Shown one piece after another: positions 12,575 to 64,000 of a stretch of 64,000 nucleotides of DNA. Location: the NCBI GenBank assembly GCA_049287025.1, contig JBAQFA010000009.1:24802-88801 (forward strand), read 5' to 3'. The notes under the pieces are model-generated. The model was not told the DNA's origin, ran no database searches, and was given only the letters and a program-made list of their open reading frames with translations. The position numbers and the translations under genes were made by a program. Positions within the stretch are counted from its first letter, which is position 1; each line of letters begins with the position of its first letter. Source of the DNA: Candidatus Magasanikiibacteriota bacterium (GTDB lineage Bacteria; Patescibacteriota; Patescibacteriia; Magasanikbacterales; UBA922).

Positions 12575-13588
12575 GTGAACAACCATAATCCTTGGATGGG
12601 AGGTGAGACAGGGGAAATGGCAAAGGATCTTTCGGAGAGAAAATTTCGAAGCACCGTGCGGTATGTGCGACGTCTATTGGGGGGTGGGACTGGTATTGTG
12701 ACTGCTCAACAGCTTCAGAAGGCTGGAAAACGAGCTCGCGGTCCTTTCTTTGACCCCAGAGACCATGGTCTGGTTCGTCCGTTCTTGGAGCGTGGAGCCG
12801 AAGAAGGACTCTGGGTGCTTGAGAACGGCGGTGGTCGGGCTGTCGTACCTGATGGTGTGTGGGAACAGTGGGATAGTCGTGGCGAGAGACGGCGTGAGGA
12901 ACGTCAGTCACAAGTTACGGCTCAAGCAGGAACCCGGCCAGCTTCAGTGCTGGCATCACTAGAGGAGGTCTCTATGACCGACGGTACGAAGAAGGGGGTG
13001 GGCGTATCCCCGAAAAATCCTATCTGGGTTTGGCTTCGGGCCAAGAAGGGTAGGTTGGGAGAGCTCATCGAGCTGTTCCAGGGGGTCCATGATGGTGCTC
13101 CGGTTCTCGCCAAGAAGGGTGGGGCTTTGAGTTTCCATTTTGCCCGCCCGCACCTAGTTCGGGGCCTGCAGAAGCTCGGGATGGAGCAGATCGACGATGG
13201 GTCAAAGATCCTGGCCACGGTCTTCTCCTACCTCGCCACGCCTGAGCAGGGGGTATTCGAGCGTGTGGGTTCTGGTGGGTACCCCCGCTACAAGCTCGGG
13301 CCGAAAGGGCAGAAGCTCTTGACCGAGGTCAGGAGCAGGGGCTCTGAGCCCATGCCACCGCCCGTTCCGTCCACGTCACCGACCGCTGCCCCCAGCCCGG
13401 GTGACCCGTTCGCCGAGGAGGAGGCCGCTCTCGTGGCCAAGCTCGAGGCGGTCCGTGCCAAACGCCGGCGCTTCATCGTGGTCGAGGACCTCGTGGTCAA
13501 GGCCATGAAGAAGGCCGGCATCGAGGGGACAGAGCAAGTTGAGTTCCTCAAGGCGCTCGTCAAAAAGCTCGGGGGTTCCTCCGAGTAG
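12575..13588 (+). CDS. GC-rich (about 62% GC) hypothetical protein, apparently horizontally acquired (cassette E)
   Basis: 337-codon open frame in 65% GC DNA is unlikely by chance. The sequence is protein-like (…EAALVAKLEAVRAKRRRFIVVEDLVVKAMKKAGIEG…). Likely start is the ATG at 12617 with RBS gggagg. Confidence 0.5.
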   Translation: MNNHNPWMGGETGEMAKDLSERKFRSTVRYVRRLLGGGTGIVTAQQLQKAGKRARGPFFDPRDHGLVRPFLERGAEEGLWVLENGGGRAVVPDGVWEQWDSRGERRREERQSQVTAQAGTRPASVLASLEEVSMTDGTKKGVGVSPKNPIWVWLRAKKGRLGELIELFQGVHDGAPVLAKKGGALSFHFARPHLVRGLQKLGMEQIDDGSKILATVFSYLATPEQGVFERVGSGGYPRYKLGPKGQKLLTEVRSRGSEPMPPPVPSTSPTAAPSPGDPFAEEEAALVAKLEAVRAKRRRFIVVEDLVVKAMKKAGIEGTEQVEFLKALVKKLGGSSE

Positions 13589-29515: not shown

Positions 29516-30103
29516 ATGCGTACAATGTTAGTCGCGTTGCTGTCGCTGGTGCTGTTTTCAAGTATTGCTCAGGCCGAAACCTACAACACCAGGTTGCTCC
29601 TGCACGGTCACAAGACCGTCGGTGAGGGATTCGGAGTCGCGGGTTGGGTGATTGCGCCCAACATCACAAGCGTACCGAACAAGTGGGTAACCCTCGTCGG
29701 CCCGTGCTACGATGGACAGGGGTGGGGTGTAGAATTGTTGGCAGGAGCGGTTGTTTCTGGTGGCGAGAGCAAGTTTCTTGTAGATGTCAGAATAACGTTC
29801 ACTCCAAAATTCTTCGGCATCCCCTTGAACACCTGGCACAACTTCCAGTGGATTCGAACCGGAGGCTCTGGCACGGGTTACTGGTATGGACAGGTTGACT
29901 GGGTGTTGCCACTCGGACTTGGACTTCTCGGTACAGAAACCGAGAACACGTTCAACGTGAGTGGCAATGACTGGTCAGTCGCGCCTCACGTCGTGATCTC
30001 TTTCGGTGATCACTTCGCGCTAGTGTTCGCTCCACAAGCTCATTTCAATGCACGTGGCTACACTGGCACGCAAGCGTGGGTTCGTACGGTCGTGAGTCAC
30101 TAG
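29516..30103 (+). CDS. GC-rich secreted hypothetical protein (cassette A)
   Basis: RBS aaggagg; signal peptide MRTMLVALLSLVLFSSIAQA; about 58% GC versus about 33% background. Confidence 0.6.
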   Translation: MRTMLVALLSLVLFSSIAQAETYNTRLLLHGHKTVGEGFGVAGWVIAPNITSVPNKWVTLVGPCYDGQGWGVELLAGAVVSGGESKFLVDVRITFTPKFFGIPLNTWHNFQWIRTGGSGTGYWYGQVDWVLPLGLGLLGTETENTFNVSGNDWSVAPHVVISFGDHFALVFAPQAHFNARGYTGTQAWVRTVVSH

Positions 30104-30175: not shown

Positions 30176-30235
30176 ATTCTAGTTAGTACTAAGTAGATAT
30201 CAAAAAACCACGCCTCATCGGCGGGTTTTTTGTTT
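30176..30235 (+). repeat. About 60-bp direct repeat (copy 1) containing terminator, 3' of cassette A and abutting TrmB paralog B
   Basis: attctagttagtactaagtagatatcaaaaaaccacgcctcatcggcgggttttttgttt; second copy at 31849-31909. Confidence 0.7.
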
Positions 30236-30254
30236 ACTTTGGGTAATTTATGAT

Positions 30255-31049
30255 TTATTTTTTCTTTTTGGCAAGTTGAGAGAGTGGTACGGCCGTATTC
30301 CAAGCTAGTTCATATAGCGCTTTTAGAATTTTTACCAAAGATGTACTTTCTATCATTACACCAATTTTGTGTGGTTTATGAGTGACGAAGACAATTTTTG
30401 ATTCAAAAATATTAATTTCACCAAAAAAGTCCTCAATTCCTGGTAGTTGATTAGGTTTAAGCCATTTAATATGAGTATAAGTCATTGATCCTTTATAATT
30501 CGTCATCCAAGTTCTAGCTGTAGGTGTATCCAAAGCAATAATACGTTCATGAATTTTACGTTTACTGCGTTCACGATTATAGCCTTCACCCCAAGTTTTG
30601 AATTCCGGCCAACTCCAGCCTTCAAAATCGGCAATAGAAAGAATTTCGGTTTTTGAATCTAAGCTCTCCCAATAAATATTTTTTAAACCCTGGGTACCTT
30701 CTTGATATTTGATAACTGGCTTTTCGGCAAACTTATAAATCGAAAATAATTTTGGTAAAACTTTTTCTACATTTAATAATTTATCTTCCCATTGCTTTTT
30801 TTTGTTTTTAATATGTTGAACCAGACGCCCTGGATTTTCCGAAGTATAAATCATTTTCGATCCTTTGCCAGTCGCGCGATCTACCAAACCATACCAACCT
30901 AACTTTTCCAAAGCATAATAACCAAGCGTTCGGTTGATACCAGCTTTTTTGGTTATCTCGGCTACAGTAGCAGGACCAAGTTCGAGCAAGGCTAAATATA
31001 CTTTGCCTTCGGTTTCATCTAAACCTAATTGACTGATTAAATCTTTCAT
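30255..31049 (-). CDS. TrmB-family wHTH transcriptional regulator (paralog B)
   Basis: GKVYLALLELGPATVAEITKKAGINRTLGYYALEKLGWYGLV; about 50% identical to paralog C. Confidence 0.75.
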   Translation of the reverse strand: MKDLISQLGLDETEGKVYLALLELGPATVAEITKKAGINRTLGYYALEKLGWYGLVDRATGKGSKMIYTSENPGRLVQHIKNKKKQWEDKLLNVEKVLPKLFSIYKFAEKPVIKYQEGTQGLKNIYWESLDSKTEILSIADFEGWSWPEFKTWGEGYNRERSKRKIHERIIALDTPTARTWMTNYKGSMTYTHIKWLKPNQLPGIEDFFGEINIFESKIVFVTHKPHKIGVMIESTSLVKILKALYELAWNTAVPLSQLAKKKK

Positions 31050-31301: not shown

Positions 31302-31727
31302 ATGAAAAGGTGCATCAAGGCTCCGGGAATTAACGCTTTCAGTGGCGAGGGTGAAGTGGGGAAGTTAGAAGATGTCCCCGGAAAACAAGGTTGCCTTCCA
31401 TTTGATCCTAGTCCGGCCGTAGGGGGTTGGATGAAGGACGACAATTGTAAAGTGGAGGCACCACCAGAGGGGTGCACGCTCGAAGTGCCCGAAACGATCC
31501 TATGCCCCAATGGAAAAAACATCCCAGCTGGAAAGTACAAGGTGGGAAAACTGCCTGATGACAAGATTCTGCATCGCTATCATGATCACGTTCTGCCCCT
31601 CACCGATGAGAAGGGGGTCACCCGGCATTATTGCATTGAAAGTTCCGGTAGGCATGTCGACTGGTCGGGATGCGTCTGCATCTTGATTCGTGTGGAGACG
31701 CGCGAAGAGCGACTGCTGATTCAGTAG
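31302..31727 (+). CDS. GC-rich Cys-rich small protein (cassette B)
   Basis: RBS ggaggga before ATG 31302 (track start 31281); 10 Cys in 141 aa. Confidence 0.55.
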   Translation: MKRCIKAPGINAFSGEGEVGKLEDVPGKQGCLPFDPSPAVGGWMKDDNCKVEAPPEGCTLEVPETILCPNGKNIPAGKYKVGKLPDDKILHRYHDHVLPLTDEKGVTRHYCIESSGRHVDWSGCVCILIRVETREERLLIQ

Positions 31728-31747: not shown

Positions 31748-31818
31748 GACGTAGTCTGGATTCGTCAACCAGTCCACCTGCCGGAGAGGTAGGCGTAGGC
31801 CGGCGCGTGAGCTCGGCA
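31748..31818 (+). repeat. Cassette 3' element: AGACGTARTCTGRATTCGTCAAYCA ... core GCGTAGGCCGGCGCGTGAGCTCGGCA
   Basis: Core at 31793-31818; 21 nt after the stop of cassette B ORF; four more copies in the window. Confidence 0.8.
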
Positions 31819-31848: not shown

Positions 31849-31909
31849 ATTCTAGTTAGTACTAAGTAGATAACAAAAAACCACGCCCTATCAGCGCGGT
31901 TTTTTGTTT
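31849..31909 (+). repeat. About 60-bp direct repeat (copy 2) with terminator, abutting TrmB paralog C
   Basis: aattctagttagtactaagtagataacaaaaaaccacgccctatcagcgcggttttttgttt. Confidence 0.7.
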
Positions 31910-31928
31910 GTTTTGAATAATTTATAAA

Positions 31929-32732
31929 TTATTTTTTCTTTTTACTAGTTTTAGCAAGCGGTGTAGCTGTAATCCACGCCAGTTCAAAAATCGCTTTTAA
32001 AATATTAGATAAAGCCGTGCTTTCTATAATTATGCCAATAGGGATTGGTTTCTTGAATAAAGCCATCATTACTTTATTATCATAAATATTAATTTCACCA
32101 CCTAAATCTTTGATAGTTGGTACTTGTTCGGGTTTTATCCAGCGATAATTAATATATTTTTTTGATCCTTGATAATGTTTCATCCAATCTCTTCCTTCGG
32201 GTGTATCTAAAACCAAAACGCGTTCAGAAATTTTTCTTTTACTACGTTCGCGGGTATATTCTTTGCCCCATTTAAAAAGATTAAACTCTGGTGTATACCA
32301 AGCTTGCAAATCCAAGACTGATAAAATTTCTGATTTGGCTTCTAAAGTTTCCCAATAAATATTTTTGGCACCCTCAACACCTTCTTGAAATCTAACGCTG
32401 GGTTTTTCGGCCACGGTATAGAGTAAATAAAAATCTGGCAATTGTGATTCTAATTCTTTTTCTTTTCTTTCCCAAGTATTAATTTTTGATTTTACAAAAT
32501 GTTTTAAATTTTTGGGATCTTTGGCTACAAATTGAATGCGTTTCTTTTGTCCAGAAGAACGATTGACTAGGCCAAACCAACCAAGTTTTTCTAGGGCATG
32601 ATAACAAAGGGTGTGACCAATGCCAGCTTTGCGGGCAATGGCGCTGGCGCCAGAAGGTCCAAGTTGTAAAAGGGCAATATAGACTTTGGCTTCTGTTTCT
32701 TCAAAGCCAATGCTTTTAAGAATTTCTAACAT
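31929..32732 (-). CDS. TrmB-family wHTH transcriptional regulator (paralog C)
   Basis: AKVYIALLQLGPSGASAIARKAGIGHTLCYHALEKLGWFGLV; ends KKKK like paralog B. Confidence 0.75.
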   Translation of the reverse strand: MLEILKSIGFEETEAKVYIALLQLGPSGASAIARKAGIGHTLCYHALEKLGWFGLVNRSSGQKKRIQFVAKDPKNLKHFVKSKINTWERKEKELESQLPDFYLLYTVAEKPSVRFQEGVEGAKNIYWETLEAKSEILSVLDLQAWYTPEFNLFKWGKEYTRERSKRKISERVLVLDTPEGRDWMKHYQGSKKYINYRWIKPEQVPTIKDLGGEINIYDNKVMMALFKKPIPIGIIIESTALSNILKAIFELAWITATPLAKTSKKKK

Positions 32733-32963
32733 AGAATTTTATTTTAGAATTTATTAGATATATTTATTATAACACAAAAATAAATTTATTTCAATATCAA
32801 ATTGAAAATAATTACTAGATTGTAAATTTTTATTTAAAATAAGCCAAAAATGGTTTATTTATTTTAAATTGAGTATTGACATACTCCATAATCTAATGCA
32901 TAATTACTTGTTCTGACGATCGAGGATTGGCCTTGAGAGTTGGACGCTAACTGGGAGGGCATC

Positions 32964-33311
32964 ATGGCCGAAGAGCACGAGGTACGGTGTGATAACTGCG
33001 CCCACCACCACGTAGGAAGCGGGGGTTGTTTCGGCAAAGTAGAGAGCAGGTTCCCCATGTACGATTTTCATAGAGGAGTAAAATACTGCATGTGGGGGGG
33101 GACCCCCAGCCGAATTGTGACCTTTTCTAGATTGAAGGGGTGCCCGCTGGGTGTGGAGTTTGTGCCACTCCGCTGGTGTGGTACCTGTGGCAACTTGGTC
33201 CAAACGGACCAAGGGTGTGCTCACCGGTTGGAGGGTTGCGAGGACCCCAGCTACAGGTGCTGGAAGATTCACCCCGACCTCAAGGAGGGTATGAGACAAC
33301 AGTACCTCTAG
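32964..33311 (+). CDS. GC-rich Cys/His-rich small protein (cassette C1), putative zinc-binding
   Basis: sigma70-like promoter ttgaca-17-cataat at 32876-32904; RBS gggaggg; CDNCAHHH...CxxC motifs. Confidence 0.55.
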   Translation: MAEEHEVRCDNCAHHHVGSGGCFGKVESRFPMYDFHRGVKYCMWGGTPSRIVTFSRLKGCPLGVEFVPLRWCGTCGNLVQTDQGCAHRLEGCEDPSYRCWKIHPDLKEGMRQQYL

Positions 33312-33335
33312 ACTACCCACCTATGGGTTAAACAG

Positions 33336-33444
33336 GCGTAGGCCGACGCGTGAGCTCGGCATTCCATTTTTGTCCAAAATATTATTTTTTGCATAAAGAT
33401 GGAGGCGCTCTTTAAAAACAAACAATCCGCACTGGTGGTGTTGG
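33336..33444 (+). repeat. Cassette 3' core motif (33336-33361) plus about 85-bp conserved leader repeat
   Basis: gcgtaggccgacgcgtgagctcggca + attccatttttgt...ataaagatgg...cgctctttaaaaacaaacaa...cactggtggtgttggttg; near-identical to 34186-34292. Confidence 0.8.
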
Positions 33445-34150: not shown

Positions 34151-34292
34151 AGACGTAATCTGATTTCGTCAATCAGCGTAGGCCGGCGCGTTAGCTCGGC
34201 ATTCCATCTTTGTATAAAAATAATTTTATATAAAGATGGTTGTCGCTCTTTAAAAACAAACAACTAACACTGGTGGTGTTGGTTGGTGATAT
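34151..34292 (+). repeat. Cassette 3' element (core 34186-34211) plus leader repeat, second copy
   Basis: agacgtaatctgatttcgtcaatca gcgtaggccggcgcgttagctcggca + attccatctttgt...cactggtggtgttggttg. Confidence 0.8.
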
Positions 34293-34780: not shown

Positions 34781-34824
34781 CTTGGGATTTGTCACCCAAC
34801 GTAGGCCGGCGCGTGAGCTCGGCA
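34781..34824 (+). repeat. Cassette 3' element, fourth + strand copy
   Basis: agacgaagcttgggatttgtcacccaa cgtaggccggcgcgtgagctcggca, 22 nt after stop of C3. Confidence 0.75.
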
Positions 34825-40574: not shown

Positions 40575-40753
40575 ATTTTTTTTGTAATCCCGATCCCGAC
40601 TAAGTCGGGAGAGGGATCCCTTTTTAATGCATTTTAACTTGTAATATAAAGAATTTTATTTAGTTAGATGTTTTTTGTTTTGAAAAGGGATTCTTCACTT
40701 CCTCTTCCACTTCATTTCACTCAGTGTCAGAGTCCGTTCAGAATGACAGACGG

Positions 40754-47625: not shown

Positions 47626-47676
47626 CCCTTCCTAAATGGTTGGGATTTTTTTGTCTCGTTTGTCGACAAGTCGAGA

Positions 47677-47702
47677 TGCCGAGCTCACGCGCCGGCCTAC
47701 GC
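47677..47702 (-). repeat. Cassette 3' core motif, reverse-strand copy after cassette D1
   Basis: Revcomp reads ctatggattaaatag GCGTAGGCCGGCGCGTGAGCTCGGCA; the upstream 15 nt also match the copy at 33321. Confidence 0.8.
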
Positions 47703-47784
47703 CTATTTAATCCATAGATGGAGTGCCACTTTTGAATGTGTGTGGCGCACAGTGAAGAGGTGTGGAACAAGCCGGCCATGTTTA

Positions 47785-48292: not shown

Positions 48293-48385
48293 CTTCCTCC
48301 ATCTTTATACAAAAAATATTTTGGACAAAGATGGAAGGCCCGGCGCTTTGTTGACGCGCGGCCGGGCGAAGCGTGGCGGAGTGTG

Positions 48386-48652
48386 TTACTCCTTGGGTGT
48401 GGAGAGGTGGAGAAAGTGGCGGATTTTTTGCCAGAAGATTTTGTTGGCTTCTATTCCGGCTTCCTTTTTCGCTCGAGCCTCCCTGATGCCCTTGTTCCTT
48501 TCGAGGCCACACTGGGGGCAGTAGGACATGTGAGGTAAGAGTTCATTTCCACACAGGCATTGTGGAAGAGCAACTCTCTTTACACCACAATATTGACAGA
48601 ACTCTGAGTATCCCACGTGACTACACATCGGGCACAGCCTACTCTCAAGCAT
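48386..48652 (-). CDS. GC-rich double zinc-ribbon small protein (cassette D2)
   Basis: RBS ggaggaagaa + ATG 48652 (track TTG 48685); CPMCSHVGYSEFCQYCG...CPQCG. Confidence 0.55.
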   Translation of the reverse strand: MLESRLCPMCSHVGYSEFCQYCGVKRVALPQCLCGNELLPHMSYCPQCGLERNKGIREARAKKEAGIEANKIFWQKIRHFLHLSTPKE

Positions 48653-48680
48653 TTCTTCCTCCAGAGTGTAAGGAATTTCG

Positions 48681-48716
48681 TCCAACTTTCGAGGCCCATC
48701 CTCGATCGTCAGAACA
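48681..48716 (-). repeat. 36-bp conserved leader repeat upstream of cassette D2 start
   Basis: gtccaactttcgaggcccatcctcgatcgtcagaac. Confidence 0.7.
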
Positions 48717-48974
48717 AGGAATTGTAGATTATTTATGAGTAATTGTCAAGATTAAGTAGTTCAAAAATGTATATAAAATAGGCTAAAATAAGCTAAATAA
48801 TTATTAACACATATAATTTTGTCGGGATGATTTGACATATATTGTTATATATGTTATATTAGTTATGGTTTAAAACATTATTTTGTTTGCTAAAGTGGTT
48901 AATTGTAGGAAAGATTCACCCTTCGGGTATCTTCGACCTCTCCGCCAGTCGGCGGATCGGAATGAACTAAAAAA

Positions 48975-58804: not shown

Positions 58805-60442
58805 ATGACAACCACACAAGATTTGTACAAAATGATCGGAACTGCACAACAGCAGGAAGAAGATAAGGATGACGTTTCAAAATATCGATACGTTATTTAT
58901 GCTCGAAAATCTACAGATGATAAAGAAAAACAAATCAGATCATTAGGTGATCAAATTAAAGAATGTAAGGATTATGCTGAAAGAAATGGACTTAGATGTT
59001 TACCGAAACCAATAACGGAGTCAGAGTCTGCCAAGGAACCAGACATAAGGCCAGAGTTTAAGAAATTAATTGATGACATTAAAAAAGCTAAATATGATGG
59101 TATTTTGGCTTGGCATCCAGACCGTTTGGCCAGAAATATGAAGGATGCTGGAGAGATAATAGATCTGTTGGATAAAAAGATAGTGAAAGACCTAAAATTC
59201 GTAACATTTACGTTTGAGAACAATACAATGGGTAAAATGTTGTTAGGGATGGCTTTCGTGCTGTCTAAGCAGTATTCTGACGCTTTAAGTGATAATGTAA
59301 AACGAGGAACAAGTAGAAGTATTGAAGAAGGTAGATGGTTGAACAAAGCTAAACATGGTTATTATAAAGATCGTAATCAAATACTGCATCCAGATGGTAG
59401 ATTTTTTAATCTGATTGAGAATATTTTTAGGATGAGAATAGATAATAAAAGTTTGGATGATATAGCTGATTATTTGAATGAAAATAGATATTGTTGTGCC
59501 CCACCTTCTAAGAATGAAGCTGACCGTAGCCCATTTCAAATGACCAAACAGATCGTCTCTAAAATTGTGAGAGACCCATTTTACACTGGCATTCTTAAGT
59601 ATGGAGAAAACAAGGTTGATTTAACTGAAATTTATGACTTTACTCCTGCTGTAAGTGTGGATGATTTTCTGAAAATAAACAACTTTTCTGATATTGAAAA
59701 AGCTCTAAAATTAACTGGAAAAATTTATAAAGACAACGCAATCAAGGCAGATTTGATGAGAGGAATGATAATTTGTGGTGAATGTGATGGAAGTATGACA
59801 TCTGGAATTACTCCTAAAAAAACAAAAAATGGTAAAACTAATTATTTTTATTACAGATGTGATAACCCTGTTTGTAAAAATAAAGGTAAGTCTATAAGGG
59901 CAAAAGTAATTATTGACTTTGCCTGTCAATATTTGGAAAAAAACAAATTTACCTCTCATTCTATATATGGGCATTATATCCAAGAAATGAAAAAAGTTGT
60001 AATGGAAAAAGAGAGGTCTCTCATACAAAAAATTCGTTCATTGACGGAGACCAGAGTACACAAAAAAAATCAATTTGAAAAGACAAAAAAATCTCTTATA
60101 CAAGAGACTGACGAAGACATCAAGGGTTTTTTTAAGGAAGATTTGAAACAATTAGAAAAGGACATCAATAATTTAGAAACCGAAATAGATGAATTGAAAG
60201 ATGAGAAAGAAAGAAATAATAGCGTCACGCTGACTTACTCAGAATACCTTGAACTGTTCAATAATTTAGCTGAGCGTATTAAAAAAATAGGCGTTATGGA
60301 AGACCTAAATTTTATAATGAAAAAAATCTTCTTGAACTTTACTATAAAAGAGGGAAAAGTGGCTCTATATACACTAAACTCCCCATTCGGGGAGTTCGTG
60401 AAAGACCGTATTGTCTTGACATGTCGGGGTGAAAGGACTTGA
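58805..60442 (+). CDS. Large serine recombinase (serine integrase)
   Basis: N-terminal resolvase domain YVIYARKSTDDKEKQIRSLGDQ (catalytic Ser), recombinase domain, Cys-rich zinc ribbon (CGECDG...CDNPVC), coiled-coil C-terminus. Confidence 0.8.
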   Translation: MTTTQDLYKMIGTAQQQEEDKDDVSKYRYVIYARKSTDDKEKQIRSLGDQIKECKDYAERNGLRCLPKPITESESAKEPDIRPEFKKLIDDIKKAKYDGILAWHPDRLARNMKDAGEIIDLLDKKIVKDLKFVTFTFENNTMGKMLLGMAFVLSKQYSDALSDNVKRGTSRSIEEGRWLNKAKHGYYKDRNQILHPDGRFFNLIENIFRMRIDNKSLDDIADYLNENRYCCAPPSKNEADRSPFQMTKQIVSKIVRDPFYTGILKYGENKVDLTEIYDFTPAVSVDDFLKINNFSDIEKALKLTGKIYKDNAIKADLMRGMIICGECDGSMTSGITPKKTKNGKTNYFYYRCDNPVCKNKGKSIRAKVIIDFACQYLEKNKFTSHSIYGHYIQEMKKVVMEKERSLIQKIRSLTETRVHKKNQFEKTKKSLIQETDEDIKGFFKEDLKQLEKDINNLETEIDELKDEKERNNSVTLTYSEYLELFNNLAERIKKIGVMEDLNFIMKKIFLNFTIKEGKVALYTLNSPFGEFVKDRIVLTCRGERT

Positions 60443-60497
60443 ACCTTCGGCCTCCTGGTCCCAAACCAGGCGCTCTAGCCAACTGAGCTACACCCCG
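60424..60497 (-). tRNA. tRNA-Pro (anticodon UGG)
   Basis: CGGGGUG acceptor, anticodon loop UUUGGGA, T-arm GAAGGTTCAAGTCCTTT. Confidence 0.8.
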
Positions 60498-60825: not shown

Positions 60826-61239
60826 ATGGAATATTTATATTTTACTTTACAGATTTTATTAGCCATAGTTTTGGGTGGAGTATTAGGTTGGCAAAGAGAA
60901 AAAATTGGTAAGCCTGCTGGTCCACGTACTTATGCTTTGGTGGCTGCTGGGTCAGCTTTGTTTACTCTTTTATCTCTTTCGGCTTTTGGCACAGTCAATA
61001 CAGTACAGGTGGCCGCACAAATTGTGACAGGTGTGGGTTTTCTTGGGGCGGGAATAATCATTCATCGCGATGGTGGAATTGTAGAGGGTCTCACTACAGC
61101 AGCTGGTTTTTGGGCAGCCGCTGCTATTGGTATGGCAGTGGGGGCTGGTTGGTTGATTCAAGCGGGGATAGCTACTTTATTATTACTAATTATTTTATCT
61201 ATTGATGATCATAAATTTTTAAGAAAGAAAAAGAGATAG
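60826..61239 (+). CDS. mgtC: MgtC/SapB family membrane protein
   Basis: ILLAIVLGGVLGWQREKIGKPAGPRTYALVAAGSALFTLLS...GVGFLGAGII. Confidence 0.8.
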   Translation: MEYLYFTLQILLAIVLGGVLGWQREKIGKPAGPRTYALVAAGSALFTLLSLSAFGTVNTVQVAAQIVTGVGFLGAGIIIHRDGGIVEGLTTAAGFWAAAAIGMAVGAGWLIQAGIATLLLLIILSIDDHKFLRKKKR

Positions 61240-61303
61240 ATTTTAGCTTATTGACAAAAAGTGAACTTATTGTTAAAATAAATTCACTTTTTTATTTAAA
61301 CAA

Positions 61304-61577
61304 GCGGGTATCACCCTCCTTCGTCCATCCTTCGCTAATGCTTCGGAGGACTACGGATGGGCAAGTATAACGGTTATTACCTGCCCGACATGCCTGATGG
61401 CAATCAAGGTAGGTGGGTCCGAGTTTTCTCCCGCCCCGAGGGCGGGATCCCTCTGTGGAGGGACAAACTCATGAAAGAAAATTAATTTTACAATTTAACA
61501 CGCGGGTATCATATATGTTCCATATATAATACTCCTCGTTCGGAAGAGCGAAAATAAATTTTCTCTCTTCACTCACT
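61304..61577 (+). other. GC-rich structured region carrying two extra partial copies of the tRNA-Gly 5' segment (GCGGGTATCA at 61304 and 61502)
   Basis: Copy 1 also has D-loop-like ATAACGGTTATTA and TCCGAGTTTT separated by GC-rich insertions with stable hairpins. Copy 2 shares GCGGGTATCATATA. Confidence 0.5.
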
Positions 61578-61649
61578 GCGGGTATCATATAACGGTTATT
61601 ATCCGAGTTTTCCAAACTCGTGAAAGGAGTTCGACTCTCCTTACCCGCT
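61578..61649 (+). tRNA. tRNA-Gly (anticodon UCC)
   Basis: GCGGGUA acceptor (G1:C72, C2:G71, G3:C70), U73 discriminator, anticodon stem-loop CGAGU-UUUCCAA-ACUCG, T-arm GGAGTTCGACTCTCC. Confidence 0.75.
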
Positions 61650-61706
61650 CATTGTCAAACTTCGCTTAAACAGCGGAGTTTTTATATTTTTATCTATATG
61701 ATATAA

Positions 61707-62006
61707 TTGAATCAAATTAGTTTTATAAATATGAAAAAAATAATTTTACCAGTTTTTATCGTTATAATAATGCTTTCAGCAGTGGTAATATTAAACATTC
61801 ACGTAATTAAATATAATCGACACTTAGTTCCGGAACCACTATATAAATATTTTACAGATAGTAAACTTCGTGTAGAATATAAAAAATATAAAATTTGTGA
61901 TTCATATACCAGTAAAGAAATTTGCACCTCTCAGCCGAGTTGTACATGGGCCAATTTTTGGTTTGATGGAATGGAAAAAGCAGAAGAATATTGTTCGACC
62001 AAATAG
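61707..62006 (+). CDS. Small membrane-anchored Cys-rich hypothetical protein
   Basis: 99 aa; N-terminal TM, 5 Cys in C-terminal part. Confidence 0.4.
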   Translation: MNQISFINMKKIILPVFIVIIMLSAVVILNIHVIKYNRHLVPEPLYKYFTDSKLRVEYKKYKICDSYTSKEICTSQPSCTWANFWFDGMEKAEEYCSTK

Positions 62007-62117
62007 ATTAAGTAACCATCATATAGGTTCTAACATCTTCTACCAAGGAACTTAAAAACAAAACAGGGTATTACTCCTGTTTTGTTGATTTTATAAATAA
62101 CTAAACCAATTATTTTT

Positions 62118-62651
62118 TTAAGCTGAGACAAAGAACACATCTTCATTTTTTTCAATTGTTTTTTCACAAACCAATGTTAGTGAATCAATTACTTTATCTA
62201 GGTCATTTAAGAATGTTTTATCCAGATTATTTAATAATTCTTTTAGTTTTTTTATTTCTTCTACTGTCCAATAACCAACCGTTGTTTCATATTGATCACC
62301 CATTTGGTGAAAGCGTTCGCCATCAGTCACGCGTCGGCCTTCTGTAATGTAACTTAGTAAATCAGTTAATTCTTGATCCACGTTTGGGTTAGAAATCAAT
62401 TTTTCTATTAGATCCCAATAAGCTTGGTTAGTCCAATTATCATCAATATTTTCATGATCTATAAATTCCAATAAATACGCTGGATAATAATCAATTCCGT
62501 CAATATTGCCCTCATCAATAATTTGGTCAATAAATTGACTACCTTCTGGATCATCGCCAATTAGTTTGTCCTTTACATCTTCTCTTTTTGAACCAATTAA
62601 AGATTTTAAATCATCTAATTTGAGAGAATAGAAACTAACGCTTGAGCTCAT
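62118..62651 (-). CDS. Acidic hypothetical protein
   Basis: 177 aa, D/E-rich, no motif recognised. Confidence 0.45.
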   Translation of the reverse strand: MSSSVSFYSLKLDDLKSLIGSKREDVKDKLIGDDPEGSQFIDQIIDEGNIDGIDYYPAYLLEFIDHENIDDNWTNQAYWDLIEKLISNPNVDQELTDLLSYITEGRRVTDGERFHQMGDQYETTVGYWTVEEIKKLKELLNNLDKTFLNDLDKVIDSLTLVCEKTIEKNEDVFFVSA

Positions 62652-62972
62652 ATGAATTAGTATTAAGAATAATATAGAATTATTATAACTTTTTAATGTA
62701 ATGTCGTCAATTTAGCGTAATTTTTTACTGTATAAAAATATCCCCTTTTAGATTGACAGGATATTTTTGTGGTCATATACTATTAATATATACTAAATTG
62801 GTATGAATTTAATCAATAATCTTTGTTTTGAAAAATGCTTATCATTTTTTAGGCCAAAGGTCGATGATAATTAACTAGACCGCTATATATCTAAAAATAA
62901 TAGAATAATTGTAATTTTTAATAAAACATGAGTAATAGAATATGGCGGTCTAAAATTAATAAATATAAACAT

Positions 62973-64000
62973 ATGAAAACAGAATTATTCAGGAAAGCCA
63001 AATTTTCCAGCTCATTGCTAAAAGTAGTTATGTCTCTTGTTTTAGTGGCATCTCCCTTTTCGTTAGTGGGTTCAGCTCTAGCCGCTCCAGTAGATAGCTC
63101 GGTGCCAGCCACATCAATAACAACGCCAACTAATAATAGTACGGTTTCTGGTGTAGTTGCTGTTTCAGCTTCAGCTACAGATGTTTATTCATCTTGTGTT
63201 GTTACGGTTTCTGGGCAATCGTACGATGTGTCATCATTAAAATCTGACCATTCTGGTGGTGATATTTTTGTTTGTGGAACAGATATGACAGCTGTTTACC
63301 AGGCAGTTCATGGTACAAGTGTAAGTCGTATAGCATCATTTTTGATTCCGTCAACCTATAATGGTGTTACACAAGTTGAGTTATATGTTGATAATAGTTT
63401 AGTATCAACTGATGTTTCTACCCCATACTCATTTTCTTTGGACACAACATCACTATCCAATGGCGTTCACGTACTTACCGCCAAGGCTTATGACCAGGCT
63501 GGTAATGTTGGTACTTCAACCAATGTTTCTGTCACAGTTAATAATGCAGTAGTCACACCAGTTTTAACAAGTGTTAGTTTGAATCCAGCAACATCATCGG
63601 TTGTAGTGGGAGGCACTCAACAATATACAGCTGTAGCTAAGGATCAAAATGGCGTAGCTTTATCACCTCAACCTACAATTACCTATACTTCTAGCGATAC
63701 AGCCAAAGCTACTGTTAATGCGAGTGGCTTAGCAACAGGCGTAGCAACTGGTACTGTGACTGTGATGGCTACTAGTGGTTCAGTTTCAAGTACAGCGAGT
63801 TTGACAGTGACATCTGCGCCACCAAATCGAGTTTTGACTACTGTTGTGGTGACACCAACAACTACAGGTTTATCAGTTGGAGATAGTCAACAATTGACAG
63901 TCACTGCACTTGATCAGTTTGGTGAACCAATTACGGTTGCTTTGTTATGGAGTTCAAGTAATCCTTCCGTAGCTACAGTTGATTCTAATGGTAGGGTGAC
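62973..64000 (+). CDS. Secreted protein with bacterial Ig-like (Big_2) domains; 3' end beyond window
   Basis: Signal peptide MKTELFRKAKFSSSLLKVVMSLVLVASPFSLVGSALA. Repeated ...VSLNPATSSVVVGGTQQYTAVAKDQNG... segments. Frame stays open to the window end. An earlier in-frame ATG lies at 62928. Confidence 0.65.
   Translation, partial: MKTELFRKAKFSSSLLKVVMSLVLVASPFSLVGSALAAPVDSSVPATSITTPTNNSTVSGVVAVSASATDVYSSCVVTVSGQSYDVSSLKSDHSGGDIFVCGTDMTAVYQAVHGTSVSRIASFLIPSTYNGVTQVELYVDNSLVSTDVSTPYSFSLDTTSLSNGVHVLTAKAYDQAGNVGTSTNVSVTVNNAVVTPVLTSVSLNPATSSVVVGGTQQYTAVAKDQNGVALSPQPTITYTSSDTAKATVNASGLATGVATGTVTVMATSGSVSSTASLTVTSAPPNRVLTTVVVTPTTTGLSVGDSQQLTVTALDQFGEPITVALLWSSSNPSVATVDSNGRV

Follow-up and report, generated by a model that had tools for sequence, protein, structure and literature searches.

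Genes for tRNA are classic integration sites for mobile elements, and a displaced fragment of the gene may be left behind (PMC4383910, PMC9897764). Displaced fragments of this kind are usually 3' parts, located at the distal end of an island that spans kilobases and carries an integrase (PMC9897764, PMC4383910), and partial tRNA copies are usually dismissed either as integration scars or as decaying pseudogenes. Here, by contrast, conserved and compensated hairpins occur at defined positions within such copies. They lie in a 64-kb stretch of DNA (hereafter the window) from an uncultured groundwater member of Candidatus Magasanikiibacteriota, a group of the candidate phyla radiation (CPR, or Patescibacteria), where an intact tRNA-Gly(UCC) gene is preceded by a truncated, hairpin-interrupted copy of itself ("module 1," 61304-61477) and by a second unit that begins with the same bases ("M1," or copy 2, 61502-61577). 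The best description of the locus is that it holds members of two families of structured leader modules derived from tRNA-Gly, which occur in Magasanikbacteria and are not represented in Rfam.

Partial tRNA fragments and pseudogenes (PMC9897764; Islander, PMC4383910) provide the nearest comparison, as they too are incomplete copies beside an intact gene that go uncalled by tRNA finders and for which the neighbor is the simplest origin. Unlike those known fragments, the copies described here are 5' parts inside a leader, have conserved hairpins, recur in diverged form across lineages, and keep their identity to the cognate tRNA. Another comparison is offered by the group I introns that are enriched at position 35/36 of tRNA genes in Patescibacteria (Nakagawa et al. 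2026, PMC13011429). These introns match RF00028 or a dedicated model, follow a U, end in G, and interrupt complete tRNA-Asn, tRNA-Asp, or tRNA-Tyr genes (PMC13011429). Phylum and unusual insertion point are the same in the window, but what is found there is 35 nt of two plain hairpins, placed after C35 of a truncated tRNA-Gly copy and without an Rfam match.

The disrupted tRNA genes of archaea, among them multiple-intron, split, and tri-split tRNA-Gly genes, are processed at bulge-helix-bulge (BHB) motifs (PMC4090602, PMC3978253). The likeness lies in the presence of several non-canonical insertions, in the D arm as well as the anticodon loop, and, for split tRNAs, in the fact that a 5' piece could in principle share the 3' piece of another gene. 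Unlike the archaeal systems, the locus belongs to a bacterial host with promoters of the sigma-70 type, has no BHB motif at any junction and no 3' half of its own, and adjoins an uninterrupted gene.

Functional RNAs can also arise from the spacers of tRNA transcripts or from tRNA-like processing signals, as exemplified by the sponge derived from the 3' external transcribed spacer of leuZ (3'ETS-leuZ) and by punctuation of the mascRNA type. With these the locus would have in common a structured RNA in a pre-tRNA transcript that RNase P would free, and the first hairpin of M1 resembles an acceptor-type minihelix; unlike them, the modules are themselves tRNA copies rather than unrelated spacer. 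Finally, small palindromic insertion elements, including repetitive extragenic palindromic sequences and bacterial interspersed mosaic elements (REP/BIME) and the Rickettsia palindromic elements (RPE), are able to land in RNA genes. As with these, short G+C-rich palindromes are intercalated in a structural RNA gene whose surrounding helices stay intact. Unlike REP and RPE, which have many dispersed copies, the hairpin pair at 35/36 is present once in 64 kb and, among the other loci examined, in the tRNA-Gly locus alone.

Anatomy and recurrence of the two modules

The host assignment is borne out by the MgtC protein encoded in the window, which is identical to one annotated from a metagenome-assembled genome of Candidatus Magasanikiibacteriota; the window is about 30% G+C, with promoters of the bacterial sigma-70 type. 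Its functional tRNA-Gly(UCC) gene (61578-61650, plus strand) is called by ARAGORN and by Rfam (53.5 bits) and is identical at the related loci L007-L009 and L020. A reading made from the sequence only had drawn attention to the locus by noting that the 10-mer GCGGGTATCA is present three times and that the last copy alone continues into a complete cloverleaf. Both statements hold. The 10-mer occurs exactly three times in 64 kb (61304, 61502, and 61578), far beyond chance (0.07 occurrences expected; none of 100 shuffles gave three), the 14-mer TATAACGGTTATTA occurs exactly twice, at 61366 and 61588, and no canonical tRNA other than that at 61578-61650 is called between 61150 and 61750 by ARAGORN or, even at E = 10, by Rfam. 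Of the two outcomes that the sequence-only reading had named as speaking against it, a single tRNA in cmscan is thus what was found, whereas the upstream copies clearly go beyond chance matches. The locus is no assembly artifact, since L016 and L017, Logan assemblies obtained independently from separate sequencing runs, are 100% identical over 1,500 nt spanning it.

The upstream tRNA-like stretch has a G+C content of 53-57%, as compared with about 20-30% in its flanks, and contains no open reading frame (ORF) of at least 50 amino acids on either strand of 61304-61577. Rfam searches of the whole window at the gathering threshold, of 61150-61750 at E<=10, and of five related loci at E<=1 returned tRNAs alone; among the families of Rfam 15 only tRNA passes, the next best match scoring 21.7 bits against a gathering score of 114. 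Scans of viral contigs with two patterns and a blastn search against phage genomes gave no match.

Read directly, module 1 is a collinear copy of tRNA-Gly(UCC) positions 1-50, identical at 48 of 49 bases, in which the sole mismatch is G43 to A and into which four self-contained G+C-rich hairpins are intercalated, one at 10/11, one at 24/25, and two at 35/36 (between C35 and C36). All of its parts lie on the plus strand. The first piece of the copy (61304-61313; positions 1-10, that is, the 5' acceptor strand and bases 8-10) has no complementary partner within the leader and is followed by insert 1 (61314-61365), a 52-nt hairpin with the conserved core TTCGCTAATGCTTCGG. The second piece (61366-61379; positions 11-24, the D hairpin), evident both by direct reading and from the repeat search, is separated by the 38-nt insert 2 (61380-61417) from the third (61418-61428), which covers positions 25-35, comprising the 5' strand of the anticodon stem and then U32-C35. 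Next comes the hairpin pair (61429-61463), composed of TCCCGCC-CCGAG-GGCGGGA (61429-61447) and TCCCTC-TGTG-GAGGGA (61448-61463), which replaces the anticodon loop by a three-way junction with an extended anticodon stem and linkers of 2, 0, and 1 nt. The fourth piece (61464-61477; positions 36 to about 50, CAAACTCATGAAAG, with the substitution at 43) ends the copy at the start of the T stem, leaving it without a T arm or 3' acceptor strand. An A+T-rich spacer (61478-61501) follows that is homologous to the spacer TTTACAATTAAACAC of L018.

Each insert folds alone as a closed hairpin when sequences are folded singly; RNAalifold on two sequences suggested a joint helix of inserts 1 and 2, where the single-sequence folds gave separate hairpins. 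The hairpins named in the sequence-only reading were all found in copy 1, as were its D-loop and anticodon fragments, although it had understated the extent of the copy, which runs on through the 3' strand of the anticodon stem and the variable loop. Two other roles considered for the hairpin pair were set aside: that of an intrinsic terminator, as T runs are absent or lie 14 nt away (L026), and that of a small self-cleaving ribozyme, in view of junction strands of 2, 0, and 1 nt.

M1 (61502-61577, plus strand, 76 nt), delineated by alignment and pair counts and scored at 95 bits by covariance model R1, is organized differently. It consists of hairpin 1 (61504-61534), the linker TCGTTCGG, hairpin 2 (61543-61570), and the tail ACTCACT. 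The 5' arm of hairpin 1 equals tRNA bases 3-16, copy 2 sharing just 14 nt with the tRNA, and the last bases of its 3' arm resemble the tRNA 3' end (..TACC(C)GC/TC). Homologues occur in three lineages, L019 and L020 with two units each and L036 with one. Across the aligned units, the two-hairpin structure has 97.9% of its cells paired, and in 11 of its 25 pairs both bases change; this covariation was reached by none of 500 shuffles, and controls in which the structure was slid were 40-64% paired. In L036 the arm tracks the T6 to C6 change of its own tRNA, with a compensating G. Matches to the M1 covariance model are confined to tRNA-Gly leaders among the 36 loci scanned.

These related loci were gathered by synteny through the neighboring mgtC gene, supplemented by one metagenome and one genome pattern scan. 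Homologues of the interrupted copy were found in four more distant lineages, always beside an intact tRNA-Gly(UCC). In L026/L027 the order is positions 1-35, two hairpins, positions 36-50, a 20-nt spacer, and the full tRNA. L029-L032, from four samples, share the three insertion sites of the window and have a copy that reaches position 55; their insert 1 (TTCGCTAAAGCTTCGG) is homologous to that of the window, with the core TTCGCTAAWGCTTCGG in common, and their insert 2 occupies the same position with diverged sequence. L018 retains a remnant of insert 1 ahead of a copy that carries the hairpin pair as well as an insert at 12/13 and breaks off at position 41. In L019 (Magasanikbacteria GW2011_GWC2_37_14) it is instead a 3' part that covers positions 30-76, includes the hairpin pair, and has its T arm intact; a full tRNA-Gly belonging to another sequence type precedes it by 4 nt.

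The same hairpin pair thus occurs at the same tRNA position in L018, L019, L026, and L029. Over the five lineages it is 95.6% paired, with two compensated pairs (C-G to U-A in its first hairpin, U-A to G-C in its second) and, in L029, two disrupted cells. In sequence it is 80% identical, close to the 86% of the tRNA, whereas the leader and spacer next to it reach about 50%. No further copy was detected by a hairpin scan of the 64-kb window, nor by regular expression outside the tRNA-Gly leaders of the 36 loci. The tRNA-like pieces also equal the full tRNA of their own genome in the window, L018, L026, and L029 (one mismatch in about 190 bases), at the same time as the full tRNA-Gly(UCC) differs by 12-18% between lineages.

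The signals around the modules suggest how they may be expressed. A strong sigma-70-like sequence with an extended -10 element, TTGACA-17-TGnTAAAAT (61251-61279, plus strand; 11 of 12 matches), lies 25 nt upstream of copy 1, is the sole plus-strand promoter-like site before the tRNA, and has homologues preceding the same locus in L018, L020, L026, and L029; if it acts as a promoter, transcription would start at about 61286. An inverted repeat with a T run (61256-61292, plus strand; 94% complementary), likely the mgtC terminator, overlaps its spacer and -10 box, and the arms of this hairpin are different yet still complementary in L018, L020, L026, and L023. Downstream of the tRNA, a terminator-like hairpin followed by TTTTTATATTTTT (61657-61681, plus strand), for which L018 has a homologue, likely ends the transcription unit. 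As one promoter-like and one terminator-like site bracket the modules and the tRNA, we infer that both copies are part of the pre-tRNA leader.

A proposed origin and role, and what weighs against it

How partial tRNA copies could have acquired and kept such features is accounted for, tentatively and at somewhat under an even chance, by regarding 61304-61577 as duplication-derived tRNA-Gly leader modules that are shaped by selection at the RNA level and removed by RNase P. Both modules would derive from tRNA-Gly(UCC) by local duplication. Module 1 would be a paralogue cut after position 50, with hairpins intercalated at 10/11, 24/25, and 35/36; since its anticodon loop is blocked and it lacks both the T arm and the 3' acceptor strand, it could neither serve in decoding nor be spliced into a tRNA. 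M1 would represent a collapsed copy in which a complementary strand locks the 14 bases of the tRNA 5' end into a 13-bp hairpin, with a second hairpin next to it. Modules and tRNA may be made as one RNA from the promoter at 61251-61279, and cleavage by RNase P at 61578 would then free the modules. Selection on the RNA would keep their shapes, the M1 hairpin neutralizing a decoy acceptor strand that could otherwise compete for the 3' end of the tRNA and the G+C-rich hairpins of module 1 perhaps yielding a compact, stable leader RNA.

A tRNA pseudogene or duplicated remnant is recognizable in module 1 from its derivation from the adjoining tRNA, its blocked anticodon loop, and its missing T arm, and signs of decay are present in the variable 3' end, the degraded second hairpin of L029, and the G43A change of the window. 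Set against these are signs of constraint, namely the high identity of the hairpin pair relative to its flanks, the cognate-identical tRNA-like pieces of four lineages, and the strong covariation of M1. The features fit a tRNA-derived remnant in which conservation, compensated helices, and identity to the cognate tRNA exceed simple decay. Among the options raised in the sequence-only reading, a tRNA-derived structured RNA is the one that fits best, as both modules have same-locus, structure-preserving homologues in other Magasanikbacteria.

Folding predictions bear on the role proposed for the M1 hairpin. They are equilibrium nearest-neighbor predictions, made without tRNA tertiary structure or co-transcriptional kinetics, and are to be taken as a lead, not a result. 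In leaders with M1 alone (L020, L036), the true acceptor stem forms in silico with a probability (P) of 0.86-0.97; when the 3' arm of M1 hairpin 1 is scrambled, the decoy takes the 3' strand of the tRNA with P = 0.57-0.90, which supports the suggestion that the M1 hairpin is kept because it neutralizes the decoy.

Several observations sit uneasily with leader modules of this kind. The closest relative, L007-L009, with an MgtC 97% identical to that of the window, an identical tRNA-Gly, and the same order of recombinase, tRNA-Pro/Phe/Ala, mgtC, and tRNA-Gly, has neither module, its leader being A+T-rich and about 85 nt long, and carriers are scattered among non-carriers on the MgtC tree. The 3' end of the truncated copy varies by lineage (positions 41, 50, 50, and 55, the break in L026 being that of the window), and together with the decaying L029 hairpin it looks like erosion. 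The covariation score of the hairpin pair was matched by 30 of 500 shuffles (slid controls, 29-61% paired) and is therefore modest when taken alone. The near-perfect identity of the tRNA-like pieces despite divergence between lineages extends to tracts of just 10-19 nt, which are short for ordinary gene conversion and so hint at functional constraint or repeated fresh insertion. Folding adds a further difficulty: in the whole window transcript the free acceptor strand of module 1 captures the 3' strand of the tRNA with P = 0.92, the global minimum being -129.4 kcal/mol as compared with -122.6 for the local fold, and decoy pairing reaches P = 0.66 in L029 and 0.38 in L018. The values for L026 are 0.13 for the decoy and 0.84 for the true stem. 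Because the acceptor strand of module 1 captures the 3' strand, the model does not depict a leader that is simply harmless and insulated.

If the modules are functional, tRNA maturation would be tuned from within its precursor in the genome-reduced bacteria of the CPR. Whether functional or relics, the two modules are candidates for new RNA motifs, and through them tRNA features are missed or miscalled when CPR genomes are annotated.

Regulatory decoys, interrupted-gene relics, and integration scars as less likely alternatives

The capture of the tRNA 3' strand by module 1 could also be a function in itself. Module 1 would then be a working cis-regulator of tRNA-Gly maturation, its transcript folding either as a processable pre-tRNA or as a long-range trapped form, with the acceptor, D, and anticodon-stem strands of module 1 competing with the real 5' half for the single T arm and 3' acceptor strand and with the G+C hairpins setting the balance or binding a factor. 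That the trapped form dominates the predicted ensemble of the window and has a global minimum below the local fold, that competition is predicted in L029 and L018 as well, that a direct repeat so easily deleted has been retained in several lineages, and that the hairpin pair is about as conserved as the tRNA all speak for this. So does the cognate identity of the 10-19-nt pieces in every lineage, which pairing with a cognate 3' strand would demand. However, the true stem wins in L026, the 3' boundary of the copy shifts between lineages, the nearest relative has an identical tRNA but lacks the module, the anticodon-stem pieces pair inside the copy and so have no need to match the tRNA, and nearest-neighbor folding of a 366-nt RNA is a weak basis. 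On balance such regulation seems rather unlikely.

A different history is suggested by a locus from the metagenome scan. On the minus strand of L004 (Ga0209717_1042446, about 1639-1420), a tRNA-Gly(UCC) that is otherwise intact has a complete second tRNA-Gly(UCC) nested in its anticodon loop, at 35/36. About 170 nt are inserted, starting with CCCGCC and ending with GGCGGG; the 5' 25 nt of the outer tRNA equal those of the window tRNA, and once the insert is taken out ARAGORN calls the outer tRNA cleanly. Along with the 3' part of L019, in which the hairpin pair is accompanied by a perfect T arm and acceptor strand, this makes it likely that a full-length interrupted gene once existed and keeps alive the idea that the pieces are relics of a tRNA-Gly(UCC) gene with intervening sequences, eroded from one end once an uninterrupted copy was available. 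The intervening sequences could have been a new small intron other than group I; alternatively, they could be the terminal inverted repeats of small cassettes with insertion sites at 35/36 (and in the D stem) and the ability to carry a replacement tRNA. Conservation of the hairpins but not of their flanks, the patchy distribution, and the preference of introns for 35/36 in Patescibacteria tRNAs (PMC13011429) are in keeping with this idea.

Other features of the locus are harder to reconcile with such relics. Every instance found lies beside an intact tRNA-Gly(UCC) and, L004 excepted, is truncated; the hairpin pair is not met a second time in the 64-kb window or at the other loci; no BHB motif was found and no recombinase or transposase lies close by; and one strict scan of GTDB species representatives gave L019 alone. 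A ribozyme intron would need far more than the 35 nt of the pair, and no match to group I introns was obtained at E<=10 in 61150-61750 or at E<=1 in L004, L018, L019, L029, and L036. Where a group I intron would come after a 5' exon whose last base is U and itself end in G, the insert comes after C35 and terminates in A (GGAGGGA|C), as it likewise does in L018, L019, L026, and L029. ARAGORN found no intron-containing tRNA in its intron search and did not call an artificial join of copy 1 to the 3' part of the tRNA either; the exon set is incomplete at the locus because copy 1 has no 3' third. BHB geometry is absent at 35/36, where junction strands of 2 nt (UC) and 1 nt (C) flank two closed hairpins, and the D-arm inserts are likewise closed hairpins. 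An intron-like or mobile insertion, another option of the sequence-only reading, therefore stands as regards anatomy, with inserts at defined tRNA positions that include 35/36, but not as regards a spliceable gene or a recognizable intron family. Hairpin ends of the IS200/IS605 type were also considered and rejected: the hairpins directly abut tRNA bases, leaving no room for guide or cleavage sequences, and do not form a multi-copy family.

Relics of an interrupted gene are thus a fairly improbable explanation. A more specific version, that a full-length tRNA-Gly(UCC) gene with small structured intervening sequences at 10/11, 24/25, and 35/36 is present in some Magasanikbacteria or was until recently, these sequences representing a new, non-group-I kind of intron or the ends of mini-cassettes that home to the anticodon loop and may bring a replacement tRNA, as in L004, and that the window holds an eroded 5' remnant possibly co-opted as a decoy, appears distinctly doubtful. 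If the pieces are relics, they would point to an unseen class of intervening sequence or of tRNA-carrying mini-cassette in bacterial tRNA genes. Apart from L004, the metagenome scan, whose pattern required 30-60 nt inserted in the D arm, yielded for the most part tRNA-Gly genes preceded by upstream 5' copies of 10-13 nt; as such copies are what the pattern selects for, they are not counted as evidence.

Displacement by mobile elements integrated in tRNA-Gly, for instance the nearby serine-recombinase element, with the partial copies as displaced attachment-site (att) fragments, is highly improbable and is largely refuted by the anatomy: the copies are 5' parts, the next unit is 24 or 62 nt away without an intervening element or ORF, and the intercalated hairpins and compensated helices of M1 would be left unexplained. 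A scar would be expected to run from the crossover to the 3' end, whereas the window fragments cover positions 1-50 and 1-14, and a 3' part is found in L019 alone; nor does a fragment together with the tRNA flank a kilobase-scale integrase element. Proximity is what recommends this explanation. As the sequence-only reading had stated, a tRNA-Ala/Phe/Pro cluster lies some 600 nt away (606 nt as measured), with a serine-recombinase element. The neighboring ORF (58805-60442, plus strand) encodes a large serine recombinase with Resolvase, Recombinase, and zinc-ribbon domains, 0.9 kb from the locus. This ORF, which lies on the other side of mgtC, abuts tRNA-Pro (60423-60497, minus strand), whose 3' end it overlaps by 20 nt. 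As the same arrangement is present in L007, which has the recombinase without the modules, this is an element of the tRNA-Pro site with no relation to the leader of tRNA-Gly. The remaining option of that earlier reading, remnants left in staggered fashion by repeated integration, is thus not borne out.

Also in favor of integration is that gene order downstream of tRNA-Gly(UCC) varies among relatives. In L012, L015, L023, L026, and L036, tRNA-Met and tRNA-Gly(GCC) directly follow it, whereas in the window (61650-64000), L007, L019, and L020 the next genes are unrelated (DUF7691, radical SAM, Fic). The site after tRNA-Gly(UCC) is on this account a hotspot of change in gene content.

Similar leader copies and other repeats

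Self-derived sequences also precede other tRNA genes. In L015 (GCA_900089805.1, FLOH01000241.1), a partial copy of tRNA-Met at 2549-2582 stands upstream of the full gene and comprises positions 1-10, the hairpin TCCCGAC-TTA-GTCGGGA in place of the D arm, and positions 25-31; L012 and L014 are without it. A near-identical hairpin, TCCCGAC-TAA-GTCGGGA, is intergenic in the window at 40594-40610, in a terminator-like setting. In L019 (LBSX01000022.1), tRNA-Phe and tRNA-Pro are preceded by short hairpins (720-733 and 901-937) built from their own acceptor-stem strands and the start of the D arm (CCGAG-CCTG-CTCGG, and CGGGC-TT-GCCCG followed by CGTAGCTCGCC-GTAA-GGCGAGC), so that self-derived leader hairpins may be general in that lineage. 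Finally, the low-G+C metagenome contigs L001 (699-761), L002 (4399-4482), and L006 (320-390) have 11-13-nt copies of the 5' end of tRNA-Gly(GCC) 30-60 nt upstream of the gene, each pairing with a downstream complement (GTATC...GATAC); the search pattern favored copies of this kind.

Elsewhere in the window, islands of at least 68% G+C are found at 13140-13487, 29690-29730, 31452-31491, 33137-33176, and 48328-48397, the largest (about 350 nt) lying inside the ORF at 12575-13588; none of the five matches an Rfam family at the gathering threshold. A G+C-rich repeat of about 29 nt, GCGTAGGCCGGCGCGTGAGCTCGGCA, occurs in direct orientation at 31790-31818, 33336-33362, 34176-34202, and 34799-34824 and inverted at 47677-47705. 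It is flanked by longer inverted repeats (32894-32946 with 48679-48731, and 33317-33362 with 47676-47721), and direct duplications with 70% identity pair 30224-30593 with 31898-32270. The region of this repeat looks like a cassette or invertible-segment system.

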